Shown piece by piece: positions 1 through 58,508 of a DNA stretch of 64,000 nt. Made by a program: the position numbers and the translations under genes. Position 1 is the first letter of the stretch. Every line of letters begins with the position of its first letter. The DNA is from a virus (lineage: Duplodnaviria; Caudoviricetes). The notes under the pieces were generated by a model that worked only from the letters and a program-made list of their open reading frames with translations, ran no database searches and was not told the origin of the DNA. The DNA lies in the IMG/VR virus record IMGVR_UViG_3300033066_002255; one strand, written 5' to 3'.

Positions 1-479
1 TCTAATAGTTCGACAGGTTTAAACATTGCGATAGGTTTTGGAATTTCTGTAAACATATCTTTGACTATTACTTTAATTCCTTTTCCCATATCGCCAAATA
101 GTCCATATACTTTCCAATTGCATACTTCTTTCCCTTTTTTATCAATCATTTTGCCTGAATTGCATTCTTGATAATCTGTTGAAATTCCACCACAGCAAGG
201 GCATTGATATTGTTTACTTGGGAACTTTGCTTTCACATCTTCAATCGTATCAAAAACATACACTTCTGATAAATCAGGAAAGTTGGCATTTTGAAAATAA
301 TTTGTGTAATTACAGTTTCTTGATTTTGCAAATAGTTCCAAAGTTTCAAGTTCAGTTTTGCCCATAACTTTGGCATACTGTGGCACTTTTTCACAAAGGA
401 AATTTACCTTTTCAACTACCCTTTGCAACCCAGTTTCACCAGGCCATCCATTGTATATTTCAACAATGATTTTATTCAT
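1..479 (-). CDS. Cassette gene, hypothetical protein with CPCC...C...C (possible Zn-binding); 3' end outside window
   Basis: My translation from ATG 479: MNKIIVEIYNGWPGETGLQ...YQCPCCGGISTDYQECNSG...VCNWKVYGLFG..., open to the edge. Absent from the ORF track because it has no stop. Confidence 0.75.
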   Translation of the reverse strand, partial: MNKIIVEIYNGWPGETGLQRVVEKVNFLCEKVPQYAKVMGKTELETLELFAKSRNCNYTNYFQNANFPDLSEVYVFDTIEDVKAKFPSKQYQCPCCGGISTDYQECNSGKMIDKKGKEVCNWKVYGLFGDMGKGIKVIVKDMFTEIPKPIAMFKPVELL

Positions 480-501
480 AATGTCCGACTGCAAAAGGGC
501 A

Positions 502-638
502 GCAGGTAACACTGTATTGCCAAAAGGCAGGGCTGACGTAAGTTCATCAGCATTTGTAATTCTATTGTTCATTTGTATTTATTTTGAAGTTTTGTAATTC
601 TAATCCCTGCCCTTCGGCAATACTTTTTCGTTATGTGC
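502..638 (+). repeat. attC-like site A
   Basis: gcaggtAAC-act-GTATTGCCAAAAGGCAGGG...CCCTGCCCTTCGGCAATAC-tttttc-GTTatgtgc; 17/19 stem. Confidence 0.85.
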
Positions 639-642
639 AAGG

Positions 643-855
643 CTACTTGACTGCTCCGAAATCAAAATGCGGAAGAATACGAAATTCACATTCATTTAGT
701 CTGTAAATGGTATTTAGTTCTGCATCTTTTCTTTGGTCTGCGAATTGTTCAATAACCGCCAATTGGTCTTGTGTAATAATTAAAGTCTGTTTTGGTTTCT
801 TTGAGTTTGTTGTTAAGTCAAAGATTTCGCCAATGTGAATTTCGTATTTGTTCAT
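643..855 (-). CDS. Cassette gene, hypothetical 70 aa
   Basis: Fills cassette 631-980; TAG stop abuts the R box. Confidence 0.75.
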   Translation of the reverse strand: MNKYEIHIGEIFDLTTNSKKPKQTLIITQDQLAVIEQFADQRKDAELNTIYRLNECEFRILPHFDFGAVK

Positions 856-891
856 CTTTTTAAATTAAATTTAGTGCTGATAAACCGCCCA

Positions 892-988
892 GCACATAAC
901 AGCGGTTTGGCAAAAGCTGCCATTGAAATTTGTGCGAAAATTGAGCATCCGTTAGGCAGCCTTCGCCAAGCCCGAAAACGTTATGTAC
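892..988 (+). repeat. attC-like site B
   Basis: gcacatAAC-agc-GGTTTGGCAAAAGCTGCC...GGCAGCCTTCGCCAAGCC-cgaaaac-GTTatgtac. Confidence 0.85.
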
Positions 989-1049
989 AAGTGCTATTTT
1001 AGTACTTATAATTGAGTTCAGCGGTTAAAACAAAAAGAATTTTCCCAAC

Positions 1050-1751
1050 TCACTTATTTTTTGATGATTTAATTATATCTAATATTTCACTCCACTCAGT
1101 GTTATTAATAGGTATGGTTGTCAAACTTTGATATGTGTCTATATTACAATATGTTTCTAATTCAGATAAATCAGAATCATACATAATATATTCATTACCA
1201 ATTTCATAATCTTCAATAACATCATTTTTACTATGAAATCCCATCACATCCCAATATAAATTATCATTTAATTTTATATAAACGTGTATAACTTCTTGGT
1301 CTTCCTCGGAAAAAATATAGGTAAATTTGTTATAACCTAATTTAGAAACCTCTTTCGCAAATTTAAAACAACTTCCTCTATTAATATCTTGAAAATTTAT
1401 GGTTTTTAGATTTCTAATATTCAACGCTATATAACTAAGGTCTTTATATTTTTCATTTTGTGTCTTCTTAGTAATAAATTTATTCTTTTTTTGATTATAC
1501 CATTGCTGTGCTGAATTTAGTGAATCAAATTTGTAATATTTACCATCAAGAACTTGAACACCATAACCACCTCTATTTTTACCGTTTTCATCATATAAAT
1601 ACTTATTCAGTTCTTCAGTATCATTGTTAGGTATGTTATATGCTATAATTTTCCCATCATTATCAAAAACATATAAAAAAATATCATTTTGAATATTTTC
1701 ATTCAAATATTCTCTTATGGTGGTTGCTATAAACTTTCTCAAATTTTTCAT
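1050..1751 (-). CDS. Cassette gene, 233 aa phage-type protein with N-terminal LRKFIATTIREYLNE motif
   Basis: Fills cassette 981-1983; TATTTATA motif upstream at 1766-1773 (-). Confidence 0.8.
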   Translation of the reverse strand: MKNLRKFIATTIREYLNENIQNDIFLYVFDNDGKIIAYNIPNNDTEELNKYLYDENGKNRGGYGVQVLDGKYYKFDSLNSAQQWYNQKKNKFITKKTQNEKYKDLSYIALNIRNLKTINFQDINRGSCFKFAKEVSKLGYNKFTYIFSEEDQEVIHVYIKLNDNLYWDVMGFHSKNDVIEDYEIGNEYIMYDSDLSELETYCNIDTYQSLTTIPINNTEWSEILDIIKSSKNK

Positions 1752-1857
1752 CGTTTTCTTTTATATATAAATATTTAAATTTAAAATTTCCACCCTAAAA
1801 TTATTTTTGTTTTTGTCTGTGGTTCTAATCAAGTTTTATCTGAACTTCACCGCACCT

Positions 1858-1991
1858 GTACATAACAAAGTGTATATGTAATGGTGGGTTTATCTCTAAT
1901 CCAAACATTAGTGGTTTCTATAAAGTTGTGTGGTTAATTGAAGTTTATCTCTATTTATCCACCACTACATATACACCCGACCGTTATATGC
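1858..1991 (+). repeat. attC-like site C
   Basis: gtacatAAC-aaa-GTGTATATGTAATGGTGG...CCACCACTACATATACAC-ccgacc-GTTatatgc; 17/18 stem. Confidence 0.85.
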
Positions 1992-2149
1992 TACTTTAAA
2001 ACCGCTTCGTTGATAGCTCGTTCGCATATTTGCCGTATTGTATCTTTTCCTAATTTTTCGATTTGAGAAGTTAAAACATAGATTGTTAATTGCTGTTTTT
2101 TATCGGTGCAAGGTTTCCTCCCTGCACCGTTTCTTTTACCGCCTTTCAT
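1991..2149 (-). CDS. Cassette gene, 52 aa basic protein, probably DNA-binding (GGKRNGAGRKP N-terminus)
   Basis: MKGGKRNGAGRKPCTDKKQQLTIYVLTSQIEKLGKDTIRQICERAINEAVLK*. ATG overlaps the upstream TAA (TAATG) and TAG abuts the R box. Below the ORF-track size cut-off. Confidence 0.75.
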   Translation of the reverse strand: MKGGKRNGAGRKPCTDKKQQLTIYVLTSQIEKLGKDTIRQICERAINEAVLK

Positions 2150-2361
2150 TACTTAATAATTATTGCGTGTCTTTTACCCGTTTCTTTGTCGCTAATCCAA
2201 ATGTGTGAGCCACTTACCCCAACGATTATATTATCGTCTGTGTTTACATCTAAGCATCTTACAAATGATTCAATGTCGCTTGTTTCTAATGCTTCGTTGT
2301 AAGCGTTTTCAATTTGTAATTTTAACGCTTCGTTTTTTGTTTCTACTGTTAATTTTAACAT
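2149..2361 (-). CDS. Cassette gene, hypothetical 70 aa
   Basis: In cassette 1984-2595; promoter-like TATCTTCG at 2395-2402 (-); coupled to 1991-2149. Confidence 0.75.
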   Translation of the reverse strand: MLKLTVETKNEALKLQIENAYNEALETSDIESFVRCLDVNTDDNIIVGVSGSHIWISDKETGKRHAIIIK

Positions 2362-2469
2362 GGCCTATCGTTTTTAATTGTTATTAATCTGATACGAAGA
2401 TAAACCTTTATTTTGAATAAACAATAGTTAAAATCAATTATTTTTCAAAAAAATGAAAATAAAAAAGCA

Positions 2470-2603
2470 GCATATAACACGCAATATAGCAAATGGCTGG
2501 TTCTGTGTTTATTCAAAGTTTTTGCTTCGCATTAACGGTGGTGTAACTTGATAGGTTCGTAGCCCGCAATCAGCCACTTGCCATATTGCCAAACGTTACC
2601 TGC
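2470..2603 (+). repeat. attC-like site D
   Basis: gcatatAAC-ac-GCAATATAGCAAATGGCTG...CAGCCACTTGCCATATTGC-caaac-GTTacctgc; 17/19 stem. Confidence 0.85.
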
Positions 2604-2608
2604 AAGTG

Positions 2609-3439
2609 CTACATTTCGTTTCCAAAGAGAGTTCCTGCTTGTAAATCTTTTTCTTTTCTTTTTTCTTCCCACGCTTTTTTAATACGTTCTTCAATAATAT
2701 TACAGTATTCAGAAGATATTTCGCTTCCAATCCAATTACGATTATTTAAAATACTCATTTTAGCTACCGTTCCGCTTCCCATAAAGCAGTCGTAAACCAA
2801 GTCATTTTCATTGCTCCACGTTGTTATGTGGTCATTTGCTAATGCTTCTGGAAATGGTGCAGGATGTCCTGTTTTTTCACGACCAAGCGTATAAGCAAAA
2901 ATATTCGGTGCAATCTTGTTTTCTTTGGTTGCCTTAAATTCGGTTTCATCATACAATCTCATAGCGTGTTTTGAACCGTGATTTTGTCTGCGTTCTAATC
3001 CGTATTTTTCAACCTTTCCAGCTTGTTTACAAGGTATCATTATTGGATTAAATGTTTTCGGCTTTCCTTTGCTCAAAATAAACATATACTCAAATGATTG
3101 CTCATATCGGTTATGTGTCAATGGCACATAGTTTATTTTTTGGTAAATCATTGTGTCGTGCAAATTAAACCCTATCTCTTTAAAAAATAATGCTTGTTTA
3201 AATGATGTTCCGCTTTCACTTCCATTCATTGTTGCATCGCCTACAATCCAAACAACTACACCGCCTTGTTTAGTAATTCTAAATAACTCTTCGGCAATTT
3301 CTTCAAATGCAAATGAATAACCATTATATTCTCGTAAGTTATCATAAGGTGGCGAAGTAACTGTTAAATCAATGAAATTATCAGGCATTTTAGCCATTGT
3401 ATCAAGGCAATTTTCGTTATATATTTTATTTATTTCCAT
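2609..3439 (-). CDS. Cassette gene, beta-class N4-C/N6-A DNA methyltransferase
   Basis: TSPPY (motif IV) precedes HPAPFP and DCFMGSGT (motif I). Confidence 0.92.
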   Translation of the reverse strand: MEINKIYNENCLDTMAKMPDNFIDLTVTSPPYDNLREYNGYSFAFEEIAEELFRITKQGGVVVWIVGDATMNGSESGTSFKQALFFKEIGFNLHDTMIYQKINYVPLTHNRYEQSFEYMFILSKGKPKTFNPIMIPCKQAGKVEKYGLERRQNHGSKHAMRLYDETEFKATKENKIAPNIFAYTLGREKTGHPAPFPEALANDHITTWSNENDLVYDCFMGSGTVAKMSILNNRNWIGSEISSEYCNIIEERIKKAWEEKRKEKDLQAGTLFGNEM

Positions 3440-3506
3440 CCCTTCTTTTTTTAAATTCTTTTCTTTAGTGCTTCGATTTGAGTTTAGTGGTTAATTAACC
3501 GAGCCA

Positions 3507-3580
3507 GCCAGTAACACGTGCTATAAGCAAGTTTGCCGCAGGCGCAACACAAACCTGCTCATAGCACGTGTAAGTTTAAA
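3507..3580 (+). repeat. attC-like site E (terminal; its R' box continues into guaC sequence)
   Basis: gccagtAAC-ACGTGCTATAAGCAAGTTTG...CAAACCTGCTCATAGCACGT-gtaa-GTTtaaa; 18/20 stem. Confidence 0.75.
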
Positions 3581-4411
3581 TCCTTTTTTGTGAAGCCAAG
3601 CAGCAAATTTTGATTTTGGATTTATCTTGATATATTTAAATAATCTTGTTTCTCCGCAAGATTCAAGGCTTTTATTAAGCATAGAACCTACCATAACATA
3701 ATCTGCACCAAGAGCAATTGCTTTTATTATATCTGAATAGTTTTTCATTCCTCCATCTGCAATAATAAGTGGCTTATTATCTTGAAGTATTAATGACTTA
3801 TGATAACAATCTCGTATTAAAGATGCCATAGGATATCCCACACCTGTTTGTTGTGTAGTAAGACAACCATTTCCATTGCCTATCCCAACTCTAACAGCAT
3901 CCACTCCAGCCTTCGCTAATTCAACATATGTATTTGGATGCGCTACATTTCCTGCCATTATAAAAAGCTTATCACCATATTTATTTTTTGCCTCTTTTAT
4001 AGCTGTAGTCATCTTATGCATATGACCATTAGCCATATCAATAAGAACATAATCTCTATTTTTCGGTGGAGCAATCCCTTCTCGTGTACTTATACCAGGA
4101 GAAAAGAAAACTGTTCCATCTATATAGGTCTTAATAAATTCATCAAGAGATAATGAAGAGAAGGTCTTAAATGCACCTGAACGAACATAATATGATGCTC
4201 TTGGAAAACAAATATTTATTTTGTTATTCCAAAAATCTTTCATATTGTAAGGGTCTACAACAGTATCCATTGGTGCTGTAAATATTGGTAACATACCATT
4301 TTCATCAAAAGGATTAACCTGTGTACGTGAACTAATTTGTGTTTGTACTGCTGGCTGTATTAATATATCATTAAAATCAAATTTTGTTATTTTCTCTTTA
4401 TCGAATCCCAT
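3521..4411 (-). pseudogene. guaC: GMP reductase/IMPDH-family protein, C-terminally truncated by the cassette array
   Basis: APMDTV, AGNV, RVGIGNGNGCLT, IIADGG and GADYVMVGS are present. The expected (F/Y)RGMS flap and final helix are missing, and the last ~17 aa are read from attC site E. Confidence 0.8.
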
Positions 4412-4617
4412 CTTTTTATGCTATCTAGTTTATGATTAATAATATCTGAGGCATCTTTAACGCCTTTCAAATAAATCTCTTTTTTTTCTAATTCTTTTAG
4501 TTTTTCATCTTCTGTATCTATATAATAAAAAAATACAGCTAATACTCCAGCTAAAATAAGAATAAATATTGTAATGCTTTTAAAGCAGCCCTCAATAGGG
4601 TCTGTTAAATCTCCCAT
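4387..4617 (-). CDS. Small membrane protein
   Basis: One hydrophobic helix; overlaps both neighbours. Confidence 0.65.
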   Translation of the reverse strand: MGDLTDPIEGCFKSITIFILILAGVLAVFFYYIDTEDEKLKELEKKEIYLKGVKDASDIINHKLDSIKRWDSIKRK

Positions 4618-4988
4618 AATTTAATTTGTTTTTTTGAAATTGGTCCTTTAGATTGTTCATATTGTTTCCAGTATTCGAGGAAGTGTTCAATTTGTTGTTT
4701 TAATTCAAGTGGTTTATCATTTATATATCTATGATATGAAGTTAAAATAAGAGAACTCATATCATCAGCATGCCATAATTGCATAGATGAAAGAAACTTA
4801 AAAATTGTACTATTACCTTCCCATAAACCCCAATTGCTTCTTATTTTTTTCCCTATTGTAAAATGTGTTGCAATAACAGCCTCCTCCTCTTGGGAGTTTT
4901 TAAAAAATTCATATTCTAAGGTTTTATGTTTAAAGTATTCATCTAATACATCAAAGCATTCACTTAAATTTGTTGGTGACATAATCAT
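4605..4988 (-). CDS. DUF6794-like hypothetical protein
   Basis: PTNLSEC...HFTIGKKIRSNWGLW...HADDMSSLIL pattern. Confidence 0.65.
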   Translation of the reverse strand: MIMSPTNLSECFDVLDEYFKHKTLEYEFFKNSQEEEAVIATHFTIGKKIRSNWGLWEGNSTIFKFLSSMQLWHADDMSSLILTSYHRYINDKPLELKQQIEHFLEYWKQYEQSKGPISKKQIKLWEI

Positions 4989-11225: not shown

Positions 11226-11799
11226 TTTTCTTGATTAATGCTGATGCTATAATAGTTTTAGAATCTTTAATAACATTTGTTTTTACCTCATTAAGAAATT
11301 CATCTACATCCTTTTCAATAATATCAATATTTTCATGTTCACCTTGAACACCACCTCCAGCATTAGGGTCTTTATCGGAATTTTTAACAACTGCTAAAAA
11401 GATAAAAATCTTTTCTGTAGAATAACCTGGAGAAGCATATATTTCAAATGGCTTTGTTAAATGCTCTTCAGTTATAACATAACCAACTTCTTCGTGTAAT
11501 TCTCTAATTGCAGCGTGTTGAGGAGTTTCTCCATCATCTATTTTTCCTGCAACAACTTCTAAAATATCAACTGGATATTCTAAAGCTACTGGATATCTAA
11601 ATTGCCTTACTAATGTAATTTTTTGAGTATCCTCATTAAATACAAGTACTGCAACAGCATTTGGCCTAGATAATTTAGAACGATAATAAATAGATTCTGC
11701 GCCATCTTCGGCAGTTTCTTTTACTGTAAGTTGGTCTACTTTAAAGTAGCCATCAAATATTCTTTCTTCTTTTAGAAATTCTGTTTTTTTGTTTGACAT
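11215..11799 (-). CDS. nudF: Nudix hydrolase, ADP-ribose pyrophosphatase-like
   Basis: Nudix box GKIDDGETPQHAAIRELHEEVG; RQFRYP; SPG; GEHE.I. Confidence 0.85.
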   Translation of the reverse strand: MSNKKTEFLKEERIFDGYFKVDQLTVKETAEDGAESIYYRSKLSRPNAVAVLVFNEDTQKITLVRQFRYPVALEYPVDILEVVAGKIDDGETPQHAAIRELHEEVGYVITEEHLTKPFEIYASPGYSTEKIFIFLAVVKNSDKDPNAGGGVQGEHENIDIIEKDVDEFLNEVKTNVIKDSKTIIASALIKKNGQ

Positions 11800-11812
11800 G
11801 TTGTTCTTGTTT

Positions 11813-12202
11813 TTATTTTTTTAAATATTTTTGTCTAATTTCTAAATCAATTGGTCGAGGTTCATTTTCCATGGAAATTCTAACGAAAACAACTCTTACA
11901 CTGCATACTTCTAATTCTTTTTCTTTATAAACATCATATCTTCTAGCTGATAGTTTTAGAGTTATAGAAGTCGTTCCAATTGTTTCTACTTCTCCGTATA
12001 TAATTACATCGTGATTTTCTTTGACTGGTGTATGGAATTCAATTCCATCCATTTTTACAGTAACCATTTTCTTAGTCTTGCAAATTCTCGTTGCCATTAT
12101 AGCTCCAGCTTCATCAAGCCAAGATAACATTTTGCCTCCAAAAAGATTTCCATGAACTCCAAGGTCAGATGCCTTACAAAGATGTCGTGTTATTACTTCC
12201 AT
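11813..12202 (-). CDS. HotDog-fold acyl-CoA thioesterase (YciA-like)
   Basis: HGNLFGGKMLSWLDEAG, VTV..D.I.F..PV, G.TS; TAATG overlap with pncB. Confidence 0.88.
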   Translation of the reverse strand: MEVITRHLCKASDLGVHGNLFGGKMLSWLDEAGAIMATRICKTKKMVTVKMDGIEFHTPVKENHDVIIYGEVETIGTTSITLKLSARRYDVYKEKELEVCSVRVVFVRISMENEPRPIDLEIRQKYLKK

Positions 12203-28898: not shown

Positions 28899-30224
28899 TT
28901 AAGGGCACAACCACGCAGTAATTGCGCCAGCTGTTGGGTTAGTAAATCTGTAAACTGTATAATTAATTGTTACTCCGTATGCATTTACAACAGCAACTGT
29001 TCCTTGAACAGAATAAGGGTGATTTGTTCCAAAACAACCTCCTGTACTATCTCTAAAATCACTTGGTTGTGCAATAGTATTAGGTATAGCAAAATAAACA
29101 TAATCAGAGCCTGAACTTGCCCCTATTGTATAATAGGTATTTGTCACGCTTGAAACTAATGCTGTATTTGATAAGGTTATTAATTCTGAAGCGTTAATAG
29201 AGCTACCACTAAATTTACCATAATACCATCTTGGTCTCCAACTTCTTGAAATTGTAGAACTTATTTGAGAGCCATGAGTATTATACGCATTAATTGTATA
29301 AAGCGTTGTTGTTGTTGATGTACCTGCTGAATAAGTATCTACTAATGTTGTTGCAGTAGTTAATATATTTGAAGAAGGTCCATATAATGTTTTTGTTGGT
29401 GAAAAATTTTGAATAATACTTACAGTTCCTGCTGAAACATTTGGTGAATTATTAATAGCCCATGTAAAAGTTTGAGAACCTATTAAAATAGTTTGTCCCA
29501 ATTCATATGTAGAACTTAAATTTCCTCTTGAGAAAGAAGAAAAAGAAGGTGTTTGATAAGGGTATAAAAGAGCATCAAACATTTCTTGCATAGTCTGTGC
29601 GCTAAATGTAGAGCCAGCAGGTATCCCTCCAAGAGCTGCTGTAGTGGGAGCTGGATTAGTATATGTATTTGGAACTGCAGGTGCTGGATTAGAAGTAAAC
29701 ATTTGCATGTTAGTTCCATCATATGTTAAAAAATATGTTAGTCCAGTTTGAATATCTCCTGCATCTAAATCTGTTAAACCACTTAAAGTAGCTTTATATA
29801 TTGTTATTGTACTTAAACCATCAACATTAATGGTAGAAGATGCTGTATTTGGATTCGCAAAAGTAGTTAAATAAATAACTCCTGTTGAATATCCAGTTAT
29901 TGAAGGAGTAGAAGTTCCTGTATAATTATTAACTCCTACTGCATCAACAGCAAAAGTATTATGTACGGCAGCTGTAAGATTAAGATTAACCCAATCTGAA
30001 TTCGTAAGACCACTCAGCATTTGATAATATTGAGCATCCTCTTTTACGTAAACAAGCATTCCTTCTTCTCTACGGTCAGAAGTTATTGCATCTCTTACTG
30101 CAATAGAATCAACAGTTCTTAAGCTACCAAGTCCATAAAATGGATTTGTTACTGCATATGTATCTAAACTATCATTCGGTGATATAAATCCACCTACTCT
30201 AACACCACCAGGTATTGTACTCAT
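28899..30224 (-). CDS. Virion fibre/appendage protein (paralogue of 27510-28886)
   Basis: Shared N-terminal domain; C-terminal module shared with 30237-32033. Confidence 0.72.
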   Translation of the reverse strand: MSTIPGGVRVGGFISPNDSLDTYAVTNPFYGLGSLRTVDSIAVRDAITSDRREEGMLVYVKEDAQYYQMLSGLTNSDWVNLNLTAAVHNTFAVDAVGVNNYTGTSTPSITGYSTGVIYLTTFANPNTASSTINVDGLSTITIYKATLSGLTDLDAGDIQTGLTYFLTYDGTNMQMFTSNPAPAVPNTYTNPAPTTAALGGIPAGSTFSAQTMQEMFDALLYPYQTPSFSSFSRGNLSSTYELGQTILIGSQTFTWAINNSPNVSAGTVSIIQNFSPTKTLYGPSSNILTTATTLVDTYSAGTSTTTTLYTINAYNTHGSQISSTISRSWRPRWYYGKFSGSSINASELITLSNTALVSSVTNTYYTIGASSGSDYVYFAIPNTIAQPSDFRDSTGGCFGTNHPYSVQGTVAVVNAYGVTINYTVYRFTNPTAGAITAWLCP

Positions 30225-37284: not shown

Positions 37285-40074
37285 ATGGATATTAAAAAGA
37301 AAATATTATTAGGAGACAAAGATATTATTTCAAAAGATAATGAAGACTTATTTATTAATTTAAATTTAAGTTCCTCATTTAATGATGTTATAAATGATAA
37401 ATTTGAAAATATATTTGATGTAGATAAACAATTTAAAAAGGAAAGAAATAGTTCTAAAAATTTCAAAATTTATGGTACTATTGATTCTACTGTAACAGAT
37501 TGTGATAACTTATTATTAGAGGTTTTTTCAACATCTGGAATTGCTGGATTGACTAATTTAATAACAACTATTAGTTCTACAACTCTTGTATATGAAGAGA
37601 AAAATGTATATGGTAAAAAAAGAGGTAAATTTATTATAGACTTACAAAATTATAACAATGATTTTGTATTCATAAAAATCCCTTCTAATGATTTAAATTA
37701 TAAAGACCAGATATATACACAACAATTAATTTTCAAAGATTCAGAAGGTAATTTTGTAGAATATGGAACACAGACCATAGATATAGATAATAATGGAAAT
37801 ACAATTGAAATAAGTAATGATTTTTATTTTATGTTTAATAAACATTGGATTAAAAAATCTCTACTTATAATAGAAGAAAAACCTGCTAAGGTATTTATAA
37901 ATTCACTTGATGATTTTACAAATACAAATGAATTTAATGTTCTTGCAGATAGAGTTGGCATAGAAATATCTCTTGATAAACCAAGCCCATTTGGACTTGA
38001 AAAAGTTGACTTAACAGTTGTGACTTCAACACTAGATGGAAGTGAAATAACAATTGTAGATGCTGGCAATACAGTTTTACCCTTACCTTATACATTATCT
38101 TTTTCAATTGGAGAACAAAATAAACAATTATTCTTTTACTCTCCAACTGATAATGTACAAGAATTTATTGAGAACGTAGTTTTAGGATTAGATAATTTTA
38201 TCAATGTAAGTACAGGGTCTCCTCTGCAACACACTGTTTTTGTAGCAGATACTACTGCTAGAAATAAAGTAAAATTAAATTTTCAAGATGTTTATCAAAA
38301 TAGAAATTACTTTACTGGAAGAGTATATGAGCAAAGTTCAACTTTAAGATATTCTTTTGGTATGCCAGCAGTACTTAGAAATGGTTTATTTTTTGAAGGA
38401 ACTCCGATGGAGTTTTATCCTTCTGATAATTATGTTTTAAAAATAAAAAATGTTGGTATTAATACAATTTTACCAATTAATATAAACTTAGGAATTACCG
38501 AGGAAAAGTTATTCTTAGCTAATGATGAATTTACTTTTAATATTACACAAGAATATACAAACACTCAAAAACACTCTATAAAATTAACTTTTAAAGATTT
38601 AAATTTACCAGCGACTAATGTTGTTAATTATTATTCTTATCAAGATGGTTTTAAAATAAATGGAATTCCCTTAGTAAAATATGGCTATAATTTTCCTATA
38701 AATTATAGTTTTTTTTTAGCTTTATTAACAAAAACTAATCCTCCATCTATAGTTAGTCCAATAGATGGTTGGTCTTACGTAAATTTCGAAACTCCTTTTA
38801 CTGTCACAGCAGATGCGGCAAATTTAGCAATTACTATTACTGCTAAAAATCCAGGAACAAGATTAGATTTAAGTTCATATGGTTCAATGCCTGATTTATT
38901 TAATGTAGATAGCGTTTTATTTGATAGTATTGGCGTAAAAGCAGAAGTTGTAGATAGTTTTGTATACGGCACTCAAAAACCTCTTGAAATTGAGTTAGGT
39001 GCTAATTTCAATAATAATTTAGAAGCTAAATATCAATTTAGAATAGAAAAATTAGGTTATGATACAATGGCATTCATAAATTCGCCAATACCTGCAAGTT
39101 TAAATCCTAATCCTTATTATTTAGTTTCAGGATTAAATACAGTATTGAGAAATTGGAATGATTCTAATTCTGCAGTAACATATACTCATAATAATGTTAC
39201 AAGTAATTGGGGAACAAATGCGTCTGCTACTAATCCTAATTTTGGAAGTTATAAGACAGGAGATGTTTATATAAATGGAATGGTGTTATTATCAAACCAA
39301 TATTTATCTAATACTCTTATCTATTCAAGTAATCCACAAGGTTCTAATGCTTTAAATCAAAGTCATGCAATTAATTCATCTGGTAATTTTTCACACGATT
39401 TTTTACCAGCACCAATTATAGTTATACCAGAAACTACATTAGAGCTTTCTCCTTATGATGTAGCACAATATGGCTATCTCACTATTTTAAAGCCAAATTT
39501 TGGTACTGCATCTTCACCTCCAACTGGAGTTGGAGCAGAAAGAAGTTTTGATTTTAGAACTGGAAATACAAACTCTTATAATACATATTATACAAATGAT
39601 TATTATAATTATGGAGGATTTATGTGGCTTTCTTCTTCTTCTTTCTATTCTTTTGGAGGTACAATTTCATCTACCAATTCAATTACAGCGCCAAAAGCAC
39701 TAAAAACTCTTTTAGAAACTGGTCAATCATCTCCTTTTATTTCAGCTCAAGGATTAACTGGCGTAGGAGCTTCTCTTCCTGCTGCTTATTATAATGAATT
39801 TAGTTTATTATATTCTTCAACAGGACAAATTAATCAACAGCATGTAGAAGGAGCAAATACTTTGAGTGTTATCAGATTAGAGTCACAAACTCCAGGTATT
39901 CCTTTTGAAATTAACAATATCAAAGAAATGAAATATATATCTGGACCAAATATTGGACAAGATTATACAAAAGGTTCAATTTTTTATATAGAAGCTCGTC
40001 CAAATCAAACTGCTGGATTAACTATTAATTTAGCCAATAATAAAATGGGTGGTTTTTCAGTAACTCATCCATAA
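37285..40074 (+). CDS. Large structural protein with Calx-beta-like domain
   Basis: ISLDKPS...LSFSIGEQNK...DNVQEFIE. Confidence 0.65.
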   Translation: MDIKKKILLGDKDIISKDNEDLFINLNLSSSFNDVINDKFENIFDVDKQFKKERNSSKNFKIYGTIDSTVTDCDNLLLEVFSTSGIAGLTNLITTISSTTLVYEEKNVYGKKRGKFIIDLQNYNNDFVFIKIPSNDLNYKDQIYTQQLIFKDSEGNFVEYGTQTIDIDNNGNTIEISNDFYFMFNKHWIKKSLLIIEEKPAKVFINSLDDFTNTNEFNVLADRVGIEISLDKPSPFGLEKVDLTVVTSTLDGSEITIVDAGNTVLPLPYTLSFSIGEQNKQLFFYSPTDNVQEFIENVVLGLDNFINVSTGSPLQHTVFVADTTARNKVKLNFQDVYQNRNYFTGRVYEQSSTLRYSFGMPAVLRNGLFFEGTPMEFYPSDNYVLKIKNVGINTILPININLGITEEKLFLANDEFTFNITQEYTNTQKHSIKLTFKDLNLPATNVVNYYSYQDGFKINGIPLVKYGYNFPINYSFFLALLTKTNPPSIVSPIDGWSYVNFETPFTVTADAANLAITITAKNPGTRLDLSSYGSMPDLFNVDSVLFDSIGVKAEVVDSFVYGTQKPLEIELGANFNNNLEAKYQFRIEKLGYDTMAFINSPIPASLNPNPYYLVSGLNTVLRNWNDSNSAVTYTHNNVTSNWGTNASATNPNFGSYKTGDVYINGMVLLSNQYLSNTLIYSSNPQGSNALNQSHAINSSGNFSHDFLPAPIIVIPETTLELSPYDVAQYGYLTILKPNFGTASSPPTGVGAERSFDFRTGNTNSYNTYYTNDYYNYGGFMWLSSSSFYSFGGTISSTNSITAPKALKTLLETGQSSPFISAQGLTGVGASLPAAYYNEFSLLYSSTGQINQQHVEGANTLSVIRLESQTPGIPFEINNIKEMKYISGPNIGQDYTKGSIFYIEARPNQTAGLTINLANNKMGGFSVTHP

Positions 40075-55049: not shown

Positions 55050-58000
55050 ATGAAAATTGCGCATATTGCAGATATACAAATTAGATTTGGGTCAAGACAT
55101 GAAGAATATAGAGAAGTATTTAAAAGACTTATAAATGATTTAATAAAAATTAAGCCAGACAGAATTGTTGTAGCTGGAGACATTAATCATCATAAAATTA
55201 ATATTTCTCCAGGTTCTTTTGATTTATGTTCTGAACTTCTAATTGGATTAGCAAGGATTGCTCCAACTGATGTTATTCTAGGAAATCATGATATGAATTT
55301 GCAACAATTAGAGCAAGGAGACTCAATAAGTCCTATTTTTAATATATCAAAATTAATTCAAGAAGATGATAAAAAAATTGCTTATATTGTAAGTAATGAA
55401 AATAAACATGAAATAGATTTTTCTCAAAACGCAGTTTATTATTACCCAGATAGTGGGTTTTATAGATTAAATCCTAAATTAGAATATGGAGTTTTTTCTA
55501 TGAAGGATGATAAAATAATTAAACTGGAAAAAAAGGAAGCTGGCGTAAATTATGTTGCTTTATTTCATGGTCAAATCTTCGGTTCAAGAGGAGATAATGG
55601 TCATATACTTCAAGGAGATGATTTAGTTAGACTTTCAACGTTTAATAATTTTGACATTGTTATGCTAGGAGATATACATGAATACCAAACTTTCAGAGAA
55701 GATGAAAGTATGGCATACTGTGGGTCTTTAATACAACAAGATTATGGGGAATCAATTGATAAAGGTTATTTATTGTGGGATATAGAAAGTAGAAAACACA
55801 TTAGAAAATTTGTGCCAAATGATTATGGATTTGCAAAATTAACTTTAGCTAAAGGTGAGAAATTCGAAGAGCGTATAGAGCATTTAAAATTTAGCAACAA
55901 TAAAAAGAAAACCAAAATTAGCATTGTCTGGGAAGACTTGGAAGAAAATTTCTCTCAAGAAAAAGAGAATCAAATGGTAAAATTAGTTAAAGATAAATTT
56001 GGTTCTGAAATAGTAAAAGTACAATTTGAAGCTGTAGGAAAAAATGTCTATGTATCTGAAGAAGAAAAAATAGAAAAAGAGGAAACTAAAGAAAGTGAAG
56101 CTTATTTAAAAGAATTTTTAACAGAAGGTGATTTTGAATGTACTGAAGAAGAATTATTAGAATTACTTAAATTTCACAGAGAAACAAATAAAATTTTAGA
56201 AATTGATGAAAAGGAAGTTGAGCGTTCTGAATGGTATCTTAATAAAATTGAGATTAGCAATGTTTTCTCTTTCCCTATAAAACCAACTATAATAGAATTT
56301 GATGAGCTATCTGGACTTACTGGTGTATTTGGAAAAAATGGACATGGAAAATCTAATTTTTTAAAAGCTTTAGTTTGGGCTCTTTATGAAGAGATTTTAG
56401 GAGGAAGTCATCAAAAGTTCTTGGTAAATCTATACACTGATTCTAATCGTGGATATGCTAAATTATGGATTACAATTGATGGGCAAAAATATTTCATAGA
56501 AAGAACAGTTAAAACAACCATAAAAAGGGATGGTTCAACTTCTAATTCTTATTCCGTGAAATATAAAAAACTTGAATTTGAGTACGATGAAAATGGAGAT
56601 TTAGACAATGAAAAATGGAAAGATGAAGAATCTGATGAAAAGACAAGAGAAAAAGATGAAGTAAGAAAACTTATCGAAAATGCAATTGGAACATTTAATG
56701 ACTTTACAAAAACTTCTTTGCAAACGCAAGGAGGTAAAGATGATTATTTACAAATGTCTCAACAACCAAAAAATAGTTTAATTGCAAGATATCTTAATTT
56801 GGAGCCTTATACGTTAAGGTATGATTTTAGGAATGAAACATTCAAAGACATTAAAAAGAAACAAAAAGAACTTGGTGATAAAATAGCAGTTGAAGATATA
56901 ATAAGAAACTTAGAGAAAGAAAAAGATATTAAATTAAAAGACTATAACGAAACTGTAAAAGAGAAAGAAACAAATTCTTTAAACAAAGAAAAGATAGACC
57001 AAGAAATTTTAGAACTTACTAAAAGACTTGAAAAAATTGAACCAGTTGCAATAAATGATAGTACAACAGTTTTAAAATTTATTCATACTTATACCGAAGA
57101 ATCTAAAAATATTAATTCTGAAATTATAGAATTAGAAAAATGGATTTCTAAAAACTTTAAAAAAGAACTTCCTTTTGATGGTTCTATTTCTCTTGAATCT
57201 CTTGTTGATTCTTTGAAAAGCGAAGAAACAAATAAAACGAAAGAAGAAGCTGATTTAAGCACAGGAGAATTATGGTTAAAAAATAATGTAGAAAAAAATA
57301 TAATTGACACTACTGAAATAGAAAAAGATATTGATAATATAAAAGAAAGTATTGTTCATCTTGAAGCTCAGTCTAAAACTTATGCTGGAAAAAAATGTCC
57401 TACTTGTGGAACAATTCACCAAAAAGCAGACCCAATAAAAGAAGAAGAATGTTTAGATGACATTACTAGACAAAAAGAATTATTACAATACAAACAAAAT
57501 ATCATAAAAGAAAATAACGATAATAAAAATCACAATTCTAAAGTTACATTAGCTATTGGTAAAATTAATTTATTAAAACAAAGTTTAAAAAACAGAGAAG
57601 ACAAAATCATTAGCATTAAAGAAAAAATAGAGTTATTAAATAGTTCTCAAGATATAATTAAACACAATAAAGAAGTAGAAGAAAAGTCTTTATTATTAAC
57701 TCAAAAGAAAAATAAATTTAATTTAAATAATAAAGAAGTAGAAAAATTAGAAGATAATCTTAAAAAATTAGAAAGTAATGCTATTAAATTAGAAAATAAT
57801 AATTTAATAGAAATAGAGATTAAAAATAAGAGTGAAATGTCTAAAGAATATAAGATAGTTCTTTTTAATTTAGAAAAACAATGCTCTAATTTATTTGCAG
57901 ACATCAAAGTAATAGAAAGCAATATCACAGTTCAAACAAAAAAACTTATTGATATTACTGAATATGAAAAGATGTATAGAAAATATTCTATATATCTTCA

Positions 58001-58508
58001 AGCTATGCACAGAGATGGTATTCCAGCTTTAATTATAAGAAAAAAAGTGCCTCTTATTAATCACAGAATAAACACTATTTTAGAACAAGTAGTTAAATTT
58101 AAAATAAATTTAGAAGTATTGGCAAACGGAGATGTTGTAGAAACCTTTTATTATAGCGAAGATAAATCTGATATGTTACCTCTTTCATCTGCTTCTGGAG
58201 CACAAAGATTTATTTCTACTATTGCGATAAAAGATTCTTTTCATTTTATTAGCAAATTACCTAAGCCTTCTTTAAGTATAATTGATGAAGGTTTTGGTAC
58301 TCTTGATGATGACCTTACTTTTGAAATAATGAATATTCTTAATTATTTAAAAAATAAGCATAAAAATGTTATTGTAATTTCTCATAGGAATGAAATAAAA
58401 GATTTTGCTAATAACATTATTGAAGCTACAAAGGTTAAGAGTGGTATTCCTCAAGAAATATTAGATAAAAACCCTGACGCTGGAATAACGAAATTAACTA
58501 AATTATAA
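55050..58508 (+). CDS. Mre11/SbcD nuclease - Rad50/SbcC ATPase single-chain fusion
   Basis: HIADIQ, AGD, GNHD, LGDIH, YCGS; Walker A GKNGHGKS, hook CPTC, signature SSASGAQ, Walker B IIDEGFGTLD, ISH. Confidence 0.92.
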   Translation: MKIAHIADIQIRFGSRHEEYREVFKRLINDLIKIKPDRIVVAGDINHHKINISPGSFDLCSELLIGLARIAPTDVILGNHDMNLQQLEQGDSISPIFNISKLIQEDDKKIAYIVSNENKHEIDFSQNAVYYYPDSGFYRLNPKLEYGVFSMKDDKIIKLEKKEAGVNYVALFHGQIFGSRGDNGHILQGDDLVRLSTFNNFDIVMLGDIHEYQTFREDESMAYCGSLIQQDYGESIDKGYLLWDIESRKHIRKFVPNDYGFAKLTLAKGEKFEERIEHLKFSNNKKKTKISIVWEDLEENFSQEKENQMVKLVKDKFGSEIVKVQFEAVGKNVYVSEEEKIEKEETKESEAYLKEFLTEGDFECTEEELLELLKFHRETNKILEIDEKEVERSEWYLNKIEISNVFSFPIKPTIIEFDELSGLTGVFGKNGHGKSNFLKALVWALYEEILGGSHQKFLVNLYTDSNRGYAKLWITIDGQKYFIERTVKTTIKRDGSTSNSYSVKYKKLEFEYDENGDLDNEKWKDEESDEKTREKDEVRKLIENAIGTFNDFTKTSLQTQGGKDDYLQMSQQPKNSLIARYLNLEPYTLRYDFRNETFKDIKKKQKELGDKIAVEDIIRNLEKEKDIKLKDYNETVKEKETNSLNKEKIDQEILELTKRLEKIEPVAINDSTTVLKFIHTYTEESKNINSEIIELEKWISKNFKKELPFDGSISLESLVDSLKSEETNKTKEEADLSTGELWLKNNVEKNIIDTTEIEKDIDNIKESIVHLEAQSKTYAGKKCPTCGTIHQKADPIKEEECLDDITRQKELLQYKQNIIKENNDNKNHNSKVTLAIGKINLLKQSLKNREDKIISIKEKIELLNSSQDIIKHNKEVEEKSLLLTQKKNKFNLNNKEVEKLEDNLKKLESNAIKLENNNLIEIEIKNKSEMSKEYKIVLFNLEKQCSNLFADIKVIESNITVQTKKLIDITEYEKMYRKYSIYLQAMHRDGIPALIIRKKVPLINHRINTILEQVVKFKINLEVLANGDVVETFYYSEDKSDMLPLSSASGAQRFISTIAIKDSFHFISKLPKPSLSIIDEGFGTLDDDLTFEIMNILNYLKNKHKNVIVISHRNEIKDFANNIIEATKVKSGIPQEILDKNPDAGITKLTKL

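Follow-up and report, generated by a model that had tools for sequence, protein, structure and literature searches.

Integrons are defined by an integrase, IntI, whose extra domain contacts the flipped-out bases of a folded attC site. In the integrons built on IntI1, attI1 and attC, as in the chromosomal integrons of Vibrio, a tyrosine recombinase stands at one end of the element beside a hairpin-less attI-type junction, and the array consists of 0.3-1 kb cassettes, each bearing an imperfect hairpin with AAC and GTT at its ends; crossover takes place at the conserved triplet, every junction combines parts of two cassettes, folding favours one of the strands and, in sedentary integrons, site length is uniform within an array. 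Here we analyse a phage element that resembles integrons in these respects. It occupies the first 3.6 kb of a 64,000-nucleotide (nt) stretch of viral DNA (Duplodnaviria; Caudoviricetes; IMG/VR record IMGVR_UViG_3300033066_002255), which at its full length we call the window and whose source is a large T4-like jumbo phage encoding baseplate wedge and tail proteins. The array is probably an integron-like gene-cassette platform with reversed cargo, of a kind often found in Bacteroidota phages; it operates like an integron, yet the enzyme linked to its sites in related phages lacks the IntI-specific insertion and its cargo runs against the orientation expected of integron cassettes.

Action on a folded single strand by an enzyme without the IntI insertion has a precedent, as the Xer-type XerCD integrates the CTX phage through a folded single-stranded attP, but there a single site serves the whole phage genome and no cassette array is involved. 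Integrase-less clusters of attC sites (CALINs) with methyltransferase cargo were reported in virulent phages by Qi, Rajabal, Ghaly, Tetu and Gillings (2023, PMC9892861). One of their sites, P12002L_attC1, lies between two methyltransferase genes and shares the geometry and orientation of the family described here, whereas in the sections of that report drawn on here the sites are treated as ordinary attC served by bacterial IntI, and an Xer-like recombinase, an attI-like junction, reversed cargo and the size of the family are not described. The nearest phage-specific concept is that of the PeSLs of T4-type phages (Arbiol et al. 2010, PMC2839356; Comeau et al. 2014, PMC4122927), stem-loops between accessory genes in hyperplastic regions for which gene movement via small circles has been proposed; they differ in being promoter/terminator repeats exchanged by homology, without an AAC/GTT core, complementarity across genes or a dedicated recombinase. 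Our search of the literature found no description of the variant with an Xer-like recombinase, an attI-like junction and reversed cargo.

A first-pass annotation of the window, made from the letters alone, had described five imperfect hairpins bounded by AAC and GTT that separate unrelated genes. All five are present and lie exactly between minus-strand genes, the minus strand carrying every gene of window bases 1-4988. The sites, themselves assigned to the minus strand, comprise a long class (S1, 508..632, 125 nt; S3, 1864..1985, and S4, 2476..2597, each 122 nt), a short class (S2, 898..982, 85 nt) and a minimal class (S5, 3513..3576, 64 nt, at the far end of the array), and crossover at G^TT would fall, in plus-strand coordinates, at 630/631, 980/981, 1983/1984 and 2595/2596 for S1 to S4. 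A purpose-built scanner for AAC-stem-GTT structures, which counts paired stem positions and tolerates G.T, gave 20, 17, 21, 21 and 21 pairs for S1 to S5 against at most 16 elsewhere in the window; in 20 shuffles of the window the highest counts were 13-17, and hits with at least 16 pairs numbered 0.55 per shuffle. The stems differ in sequence from one another and no T-run follows any of the five, and their shared geometry, another feature remarked on at first pass, was borne out on recomputation: plus-strand spacers on the GTT and AAC sides measure 6/3, 7/3, 4/1, 5/2 and 4/0 nt, an excess of 3-4 nt on the GTT side in 5/5 sites. A covariance-model scan, which the same annotation had advised, was carried out with a model trained on related sites and recovered S1 (94 bits, E = 2e-16), S2 (65.6 bits, E = 8e-11, a site outside the training set), S3 (103 bits) and S4 (94.9 bits), with no further credible site in the window, the two leftover hits having E = 1.6 and 3.5. 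The short S5 was detected by the scanner only, without a covariance-model hit, and its hairpin recurs at 98.6% identity behind different genes in two unrelated phage contigs (L001 and L002).

Related loci were collected with an 18-mer of the S5 stem, which matched 52 stretches of IMG/VR DNA, and in the collected loci (50 IMG/VR phage contigs) the scanner counted 174 sites, in arrays of up to nine; 126 of the 174 show the spacer asymmetry of 3-4 nt, and site lengths form clusters around 63, 87 and 124 nt. The gene-sense consensus is a box A-T-T-G-C-N-N-[A/C]-T-A-A-C, a spacer G-T-W-T-G and a stem base GTGYAT...ATRCAC, followed by G-T and by G-T-T-A-[T/G]-N-N-G-C-N-G-[T/G], and the sites contain AAC/GTT triplets, a two-box layout, an internal loop and a loop of 20-90 nt, with a spacer asymmetry unlike that of attC_aadA1. 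An alignment of 52 long-class sites, from which the family covariance model was built, shows compensatory change in 17 of 22 predicted pairs, while one G.T pair of the stem (alignment columns 33:130, within the stems of S1, S3 and S4 in the window) is invariant in 52/52 sites and its neighbours covary freely. Cassettes with different genes share, at 73-89% identity, a leader of some 75 nt that comes after hairpin and tail (about 30 loci; window 3422-3537) and may move together with the site as a promoter or translation leader.

It had been noticed at first pass that the bases after each GTT fit the next site better than their own, and over 15 nt, read as reverse complement, the GTT box of each window site matches the AAC box of the following one at 12, 14, 14 and 9 positions, against 9, 9, 8, 8 and 5 for its own AAC box. 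The weakness of the fourth pair (9/15), also remarked on there, arises because the methyltransferase cassette that it spans (cassette E below) is a mosaic put together from two methyltransferase cassettes. Over hairpin, leader and the first 100 nt it shares 94% identity with a cassette of L002, the far box of which gives a 13/15 match, and the remainder resembles another methyltransferase cassette, in L046. Across 76 neighbouring site pairs the tail of site k agrees with the box of site k+1 in 8.8 of 14 positions on average (mode 11), compared with 5.3 for a tail and its own box and 4.9 for random pairs, so that the hybrid junctions of integrons are found in the family as well as in the window, and in the extended R box position 11 is a conserved T.G wobble in 62 of the 76 pairs.

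This junction signature is symmetric and is therefore silent on which side of the hairpin is exchanged, a question decided by the breakpoints of homology between contigs. Downstream-running homology starts at the gene-sense TAAC in 51 high-scoring segment pairs, and homology arriving from upstream ends 0 to +6 nt from the gene-sense AAC; at the gene-sense GTT at most one or two segment pairs start and none ends. An entire unit is shared by L018:2030-2615 and L026:4615-5198 at 93.9% identity with AAC(G) at both ends, and an identical hairpin follows unrelated upstream DNA in 41 distinct pairs. The breakpoints thus indicate that the mobile unit runs from the hairpin to the box after the stop codon, with the hairpin going with its downstream gene. 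They lie exactly at the TAAC/GTTA core and also bear out the earlier choice of the plus strand as the attC top strand, with the cargo antisense; the opposite assignment, in which the minus (gene-sense) strand is the top strand and each open reading frame (ORF) precedes its site, was rejected by the same mapping because hairpin and downstream gene go together. For comparison, aadA1 in plasmid R100 shows the canonical order of ORF, then R'', L'', L' and G^TT. The cargo ORFs of the phages are antisense to the G^TT polarity and aimed at the recombinase, each hairpin preceding its own gene, whereas integron cassettes are co-oriented with their sites. The family departs from integrons further in that its 3-4 extra unpaired bases lie in the crossover-side spacer and are not extrahelical in the L box, in an R box that extends over about 15 bp and keeps a wobble at position 11, and in the invariant G.T pair of the stem.

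In 109 of 118 non-redundant sites the gene-sense strand has the stabler fold, and their stems hold 278 G.T against 29 A.C pairs, an excess that is partly built in because the scanner tolerates G.T; scanner sites number 126 on the gene-sense strand and 12 on the other. It would thus be the single gene-sense DNA strand that folds. That one pair is never G-C or A-T in 52 sites argues for DNA recognition or strand choice over mere pairing in RNA, and the invariant G.T probably has one of these roles.

Hairpins with a common leader could instead be regulatory modules of the PeSL kind, acting as terminator and promoter or as RNA-processing elements, with the genes between them shuffled by homologous recombination. 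The window phage is T4-like, PeSLs and mini-circles have been documented (PMC2839356, PMC4122927), the post-hairpin leader is shared by cassettes with different genes, pairing on the mRNA strand is G.U-compatible, and many site-bearing phages have no recombinase. We nevertheless consider this explanation improbable. Homologous exchange does not predict complementarity of a tail with the next box across an unrelated gene, with compensatory variation, nor breakpoints limited to a 4-nt core, nor a G.T pair maintained in 52 sites without change to G-C or A-T, nor a dedicated recombinase with a hairpin-less half-site junction of the sort described below; and the window hairpins, lacking a T-run and differing in their stems, do not have the character of PeSLs. 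A secondary regulatory role for hairpin and leader would be compatible with a cassette platform.

Such a recombinase, a tyrosine recombinase of 263-289 amino acids, is encoded in 5 of 33 site-bearing contigs, in four of which it lies 1-2 kb past the last site and on the same strand. Among NCBIfam models the XerA/integron-integrase model fits it best (169-206 bits, under the cut-off of 220), and the match of the proteins to TIGR02249, the model for integron integrases, is broken into two stretches with model positions 180-238 left out and scores 150-168 bits, the cut-off being 265. Pfam recognises the catalytic domain in all five and a SAM_4 N-terminal domain in four. The proteins are 28-30% identical to IntI1 and keep the catalytic RKHRHY, but they lack about 42 residues at IntI1 201-250, where the IntI-specific insertion is situated, and so have no extra domain near patch III. 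The first-pass annotation had recommended a search for a tyrosine recombinase with that insertion; none was found, for the recombinases of the relatives are without it and no protein in three site-carrying Bacteroidota metagenome-assembled genomes (MAGs) reaches the TIGR02249 cut-off. Its view that the junctions were left by IntI crossover at G^TT of circular cassettes accordingly stands as regards the footprint, seen in the 76 pairs and the core breakpoints, and falls as regards the enzyme, which on these alignments is a short Xer/IntI-like recombinase and not a bona fide IntI. Smyshlyaev et al. have noted incomplete conservation of the insertion among the tyrosine recombinases of their integron-like subgroup. 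Metagenomes contain many close homologues of the recombinase (78-91% identity), on contigs of phage size. One recombinase-bearing contig, L077, encodes a crAss_MUZ_C domain protein (11233-11958), and the system is therefore found in crAss-like phages also, not in T4-like phages alone; a homologue on Saprospiraceae MAG contig C9 (a 567-amino-acid ORF with one nearby site) was set aside as too unclear.

The recombinase is accompanied by a junction of its own. In 11 of 11 recombinase loci the last cassette closes with a hairpin-less box whose final bases are TAAC, situated 50-75 nt ahead of the recombinase ATG, and in most of them a (T)ATATGTA motif follows the box. Independent test loci, selected by the recombinase alone (three metagenome contigs and three Bacteroidota MAG contigs), showed the TAAC box and hairpin-less junction upstream on the same strand in 6/6 cases, with 1-8 sites upstream in all except the 2.3-kb contig L085. 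The junction is attI-like, and the relatives, in these 11 loci, would thereby have the attI component of an integron. Read in attC polarity, the order is a divergent recombinase, attI and then the cassettes, as in an integron save for the cargo, which is aimed at the recombinase.

Two further explanations bear on this enzyme. Genes might be flanked by inverted double-stranded Xer sites and exchanged by host XerC/D, as in the pdif modules of Acinetobacter plasmids; inverted boxes of the GCNNNTAAC / GTTANNNGC type do flank each gene and resemble Xer arms, and the linked enzyme scores as Xer-like. The boxes, however, are separated by a covarying hairpin of 50-120 nt in place of a 6-8 bp spacer, the strand asymmetry and the invariant mismatch indicate a folded single strand, and the recombinase is encoded by the element and has its own attI-like junction, all of which makes dif-type exchange very unlikely.

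Alternatively, the array could be a classical CALIN, that is, true attC sites from a bacterial integron that are served by a host IntI. The logic of attC is present in the AAC/GTT core, the chimeric R' box, the variable loop and cassettes of about 0.35-1.0 kb, and the window has five sites and no tyrosine recombinase that was noticed, but its array continues past base 1, on the side where the relatives have their recombinase. In PMC9892861, CALINs with methyltransferase cargo are reported from virulent phages and IntI1 recombined 5 of 6 phage sites tested, the sole failure being P12002L_attC1, the site that belongs to the present family; P12002L_attC2, which IntI1 did recombine, was considered as a family member and rejected, being a different repeat present in two copies in P12002L. 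The enzyme linked to the family, moreover, has no IntI insertion, the site-carrying MAGs have no protein at the TIGR02249 cut-off, the family covariance model has no hit on plasmid R100, which carries the canonical attC_aadA1, and ORF orientation and spacer asymmetry are unlike those of attC_aadA1. We therefore regard a classical CALIN as a poor candidate.

No integrase is annotated in the cultured Polaribacter phage P12002L (L067), which carries family members at 30005-30058, 38036-38089 and 39123-39244, adjacent to methyltransferase and Mom-like genes, and could be used to study the system in the laboratory.

We envisage the integron-like platform as working in the following way. In gene sense a unit consists of TAA^C, a 4-7 nt spacer, a hairpin of 17-21 bp with the invariant G.T, a spacer of 0-3 nt and GTTA with a tail of about 12 nt, and then the leader, one or more ORFs, the stop codon and a closing box with TAAC at its end. 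An Xer/IntI-like tyrosine recombinase would bind the folded site, the two flanking boxes forming the R box and the stem base the second arm, and would exchange strands at the AAC/GTT triplet. Recombination between two sites would excise a circular unit, with pairing between the unit's own two boxes, and recombination between a site and attI would insert a unit beside the recombinase gene. We infer both the exact bond that is cleaved and the circular intermediates. The cargo would be phage accessory genes, notably DNA methyltransferases that counter host restriction, and the array of the window would have reached its present position in the gene guaC by off-target insertion at a bare GTT.

Several observations weigh against this interpretation. 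No recombinase is visible in the window, so activity in the window phage is hypothetical, and a tyrosine recombinase is absent from 5 of 8 CheckV-complete contigs that bear sites. The many G.T pairs on the mRNA-sense strand and the conserved leader also fit a regulatory role at the RNA level. The linkage of hairpin and downstream gene is best shown for one hairpin type, because the breakpoint loci were all gathered with an 18-mer from that type. Finally, the failure of IntI1 on P12002L_attC1 (PMC9892861) argues against IntI and is no test of an Xer-like enzyme.

In the window the crossover points delimit five cassettes, all on the minus strand, and only one of the five has a function recognised by Pfam and PHROGs. 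Cassette A (1..630), cut at the window start and headed in gene sense by S1, has a Cys-rich ORF of at least 159 amino acids (3-479, or 3-572) with no family match in Pfam or PHROGs; this frame is open as far as an ATG at 570-572 within the S1 loop, which would give 190 amino acids instead of 159, and in the other four cassettes the ORF starts outside its own hairpin. Cassette B (631..980, with S2) has a 70-amino-acid ORF at 643-855, cassette C (981..1983, with S3) a 233-amino-acid ORF at 1050-1751 and cassette D (1984..2595, with S4) overlapping ORFs at 2149-2361 (70 amino acids) and 1991-2149 (52 amino acids), none with a Pfam or PHROGs function. The order at cassette C is matched on three short (1-2 kb) metagenome contigs, looked up by identity of the 233-amino-acid protein, and a TATTTAT motif precedes this ORF (window 1752-1790, minus strand). 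Cassette E (2596..3574, with S5) encodes the recognised protein, an N6/N4 DNA methyltransferase (2609-3439; PF01555, E = 5.5e-42; phrog_67).

Directly beyond the G^TT of S5, which is the site most distant from the position of the recombinase in the relatives, lies a guaC/IMPDH-family gene (3521..4411, minus strand; PF00478) truncated by the array, its last 17 codons being read from the S5 hairpin. Similarity of its product to 10 relatives of 357-377 amino acids ends at ...KKGFK, at the AAAC junction (3574-3577), and about 80 residues are lost, among them the conserved RGMSTK region. The arrangement fits off-target insertion of the array in guaC at a secondary GTT site, and IntI has reportedly been seen, in one preprint (10.1101/2022.09.11.507474), to insert at off-target sites. 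Window bases 1-3576 would then be the recombinase-distal part of the array, with the recombinase end, if present, beyond base 1; neither the ORF list nor domain scans brought a tyrosine recombinase to notice in the window, and the array runs off base 1. The window phage would have access to the enzyme through a copy of its own beyond base 1 or through supply by the host or a co-infecting phage. A DUF6794 protein adjoins guaC (window 4605-4988), and an SbcC-like nuclease subunit (phrog_77) is encoded at 55050-58508, distant from the array.

Over 78 units the median length is 612 nt, with sizes of about 0.35-1.0 kb and mostly one ORF each. DNA methyltransferases of five families make up 18 of 82 cargo ORFs (about 22%), and the remainder are mainly orphans, together with ThyX, an RNA ligase and others. 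Sites of the family also occur in bacterial chromosomes, most of them overlooked by the stem scanner and found by the covariance model only. In the Flavobacterium MAG G034 they lie on contigs with type IX secretion genes (L095:5550-6402, contig C15; L096:6186-9021, contig C5), and the chromosomal sites stand between opposite-strand genes, which is the canonical integron orientation. The cargo of the Flavobacterium arrays includes an nSTAND3/Mrr_cat protein and a DUF4365 protein, which look like anti-phage defence genes.

It is possible, though we would put the chance somewhat below even, that a single folded-site cassette system, driven by Xer-like recombinases that lack the IntI domain, is common to Bacteroidota and to their phages, with canonical defence arrays in the host and mirror-image arrays of counter-defence methyltransferases in the phage. 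If so, cassettes could cross between both sides of the arms race, and integron-type recombination on a folded strand either does not need the IntI-specific insertion or arose twice. In the window phage, an array of accessory genes would have disrupted guaC, a gene of nucleotide metabolism, through off-target insertion. Searches based on IntI are not expected to recognise the system as a complete integron, and attC-like sites served by a recombinase without the extra domain would broaden the definition of the integron and offer a tractable model for the evolution of folded-site recognition. Such a system would also account for the exchange of anti-restriction methyltransferases and orphan genes, as precise units, among lytic phages, in which integrases are not expected.

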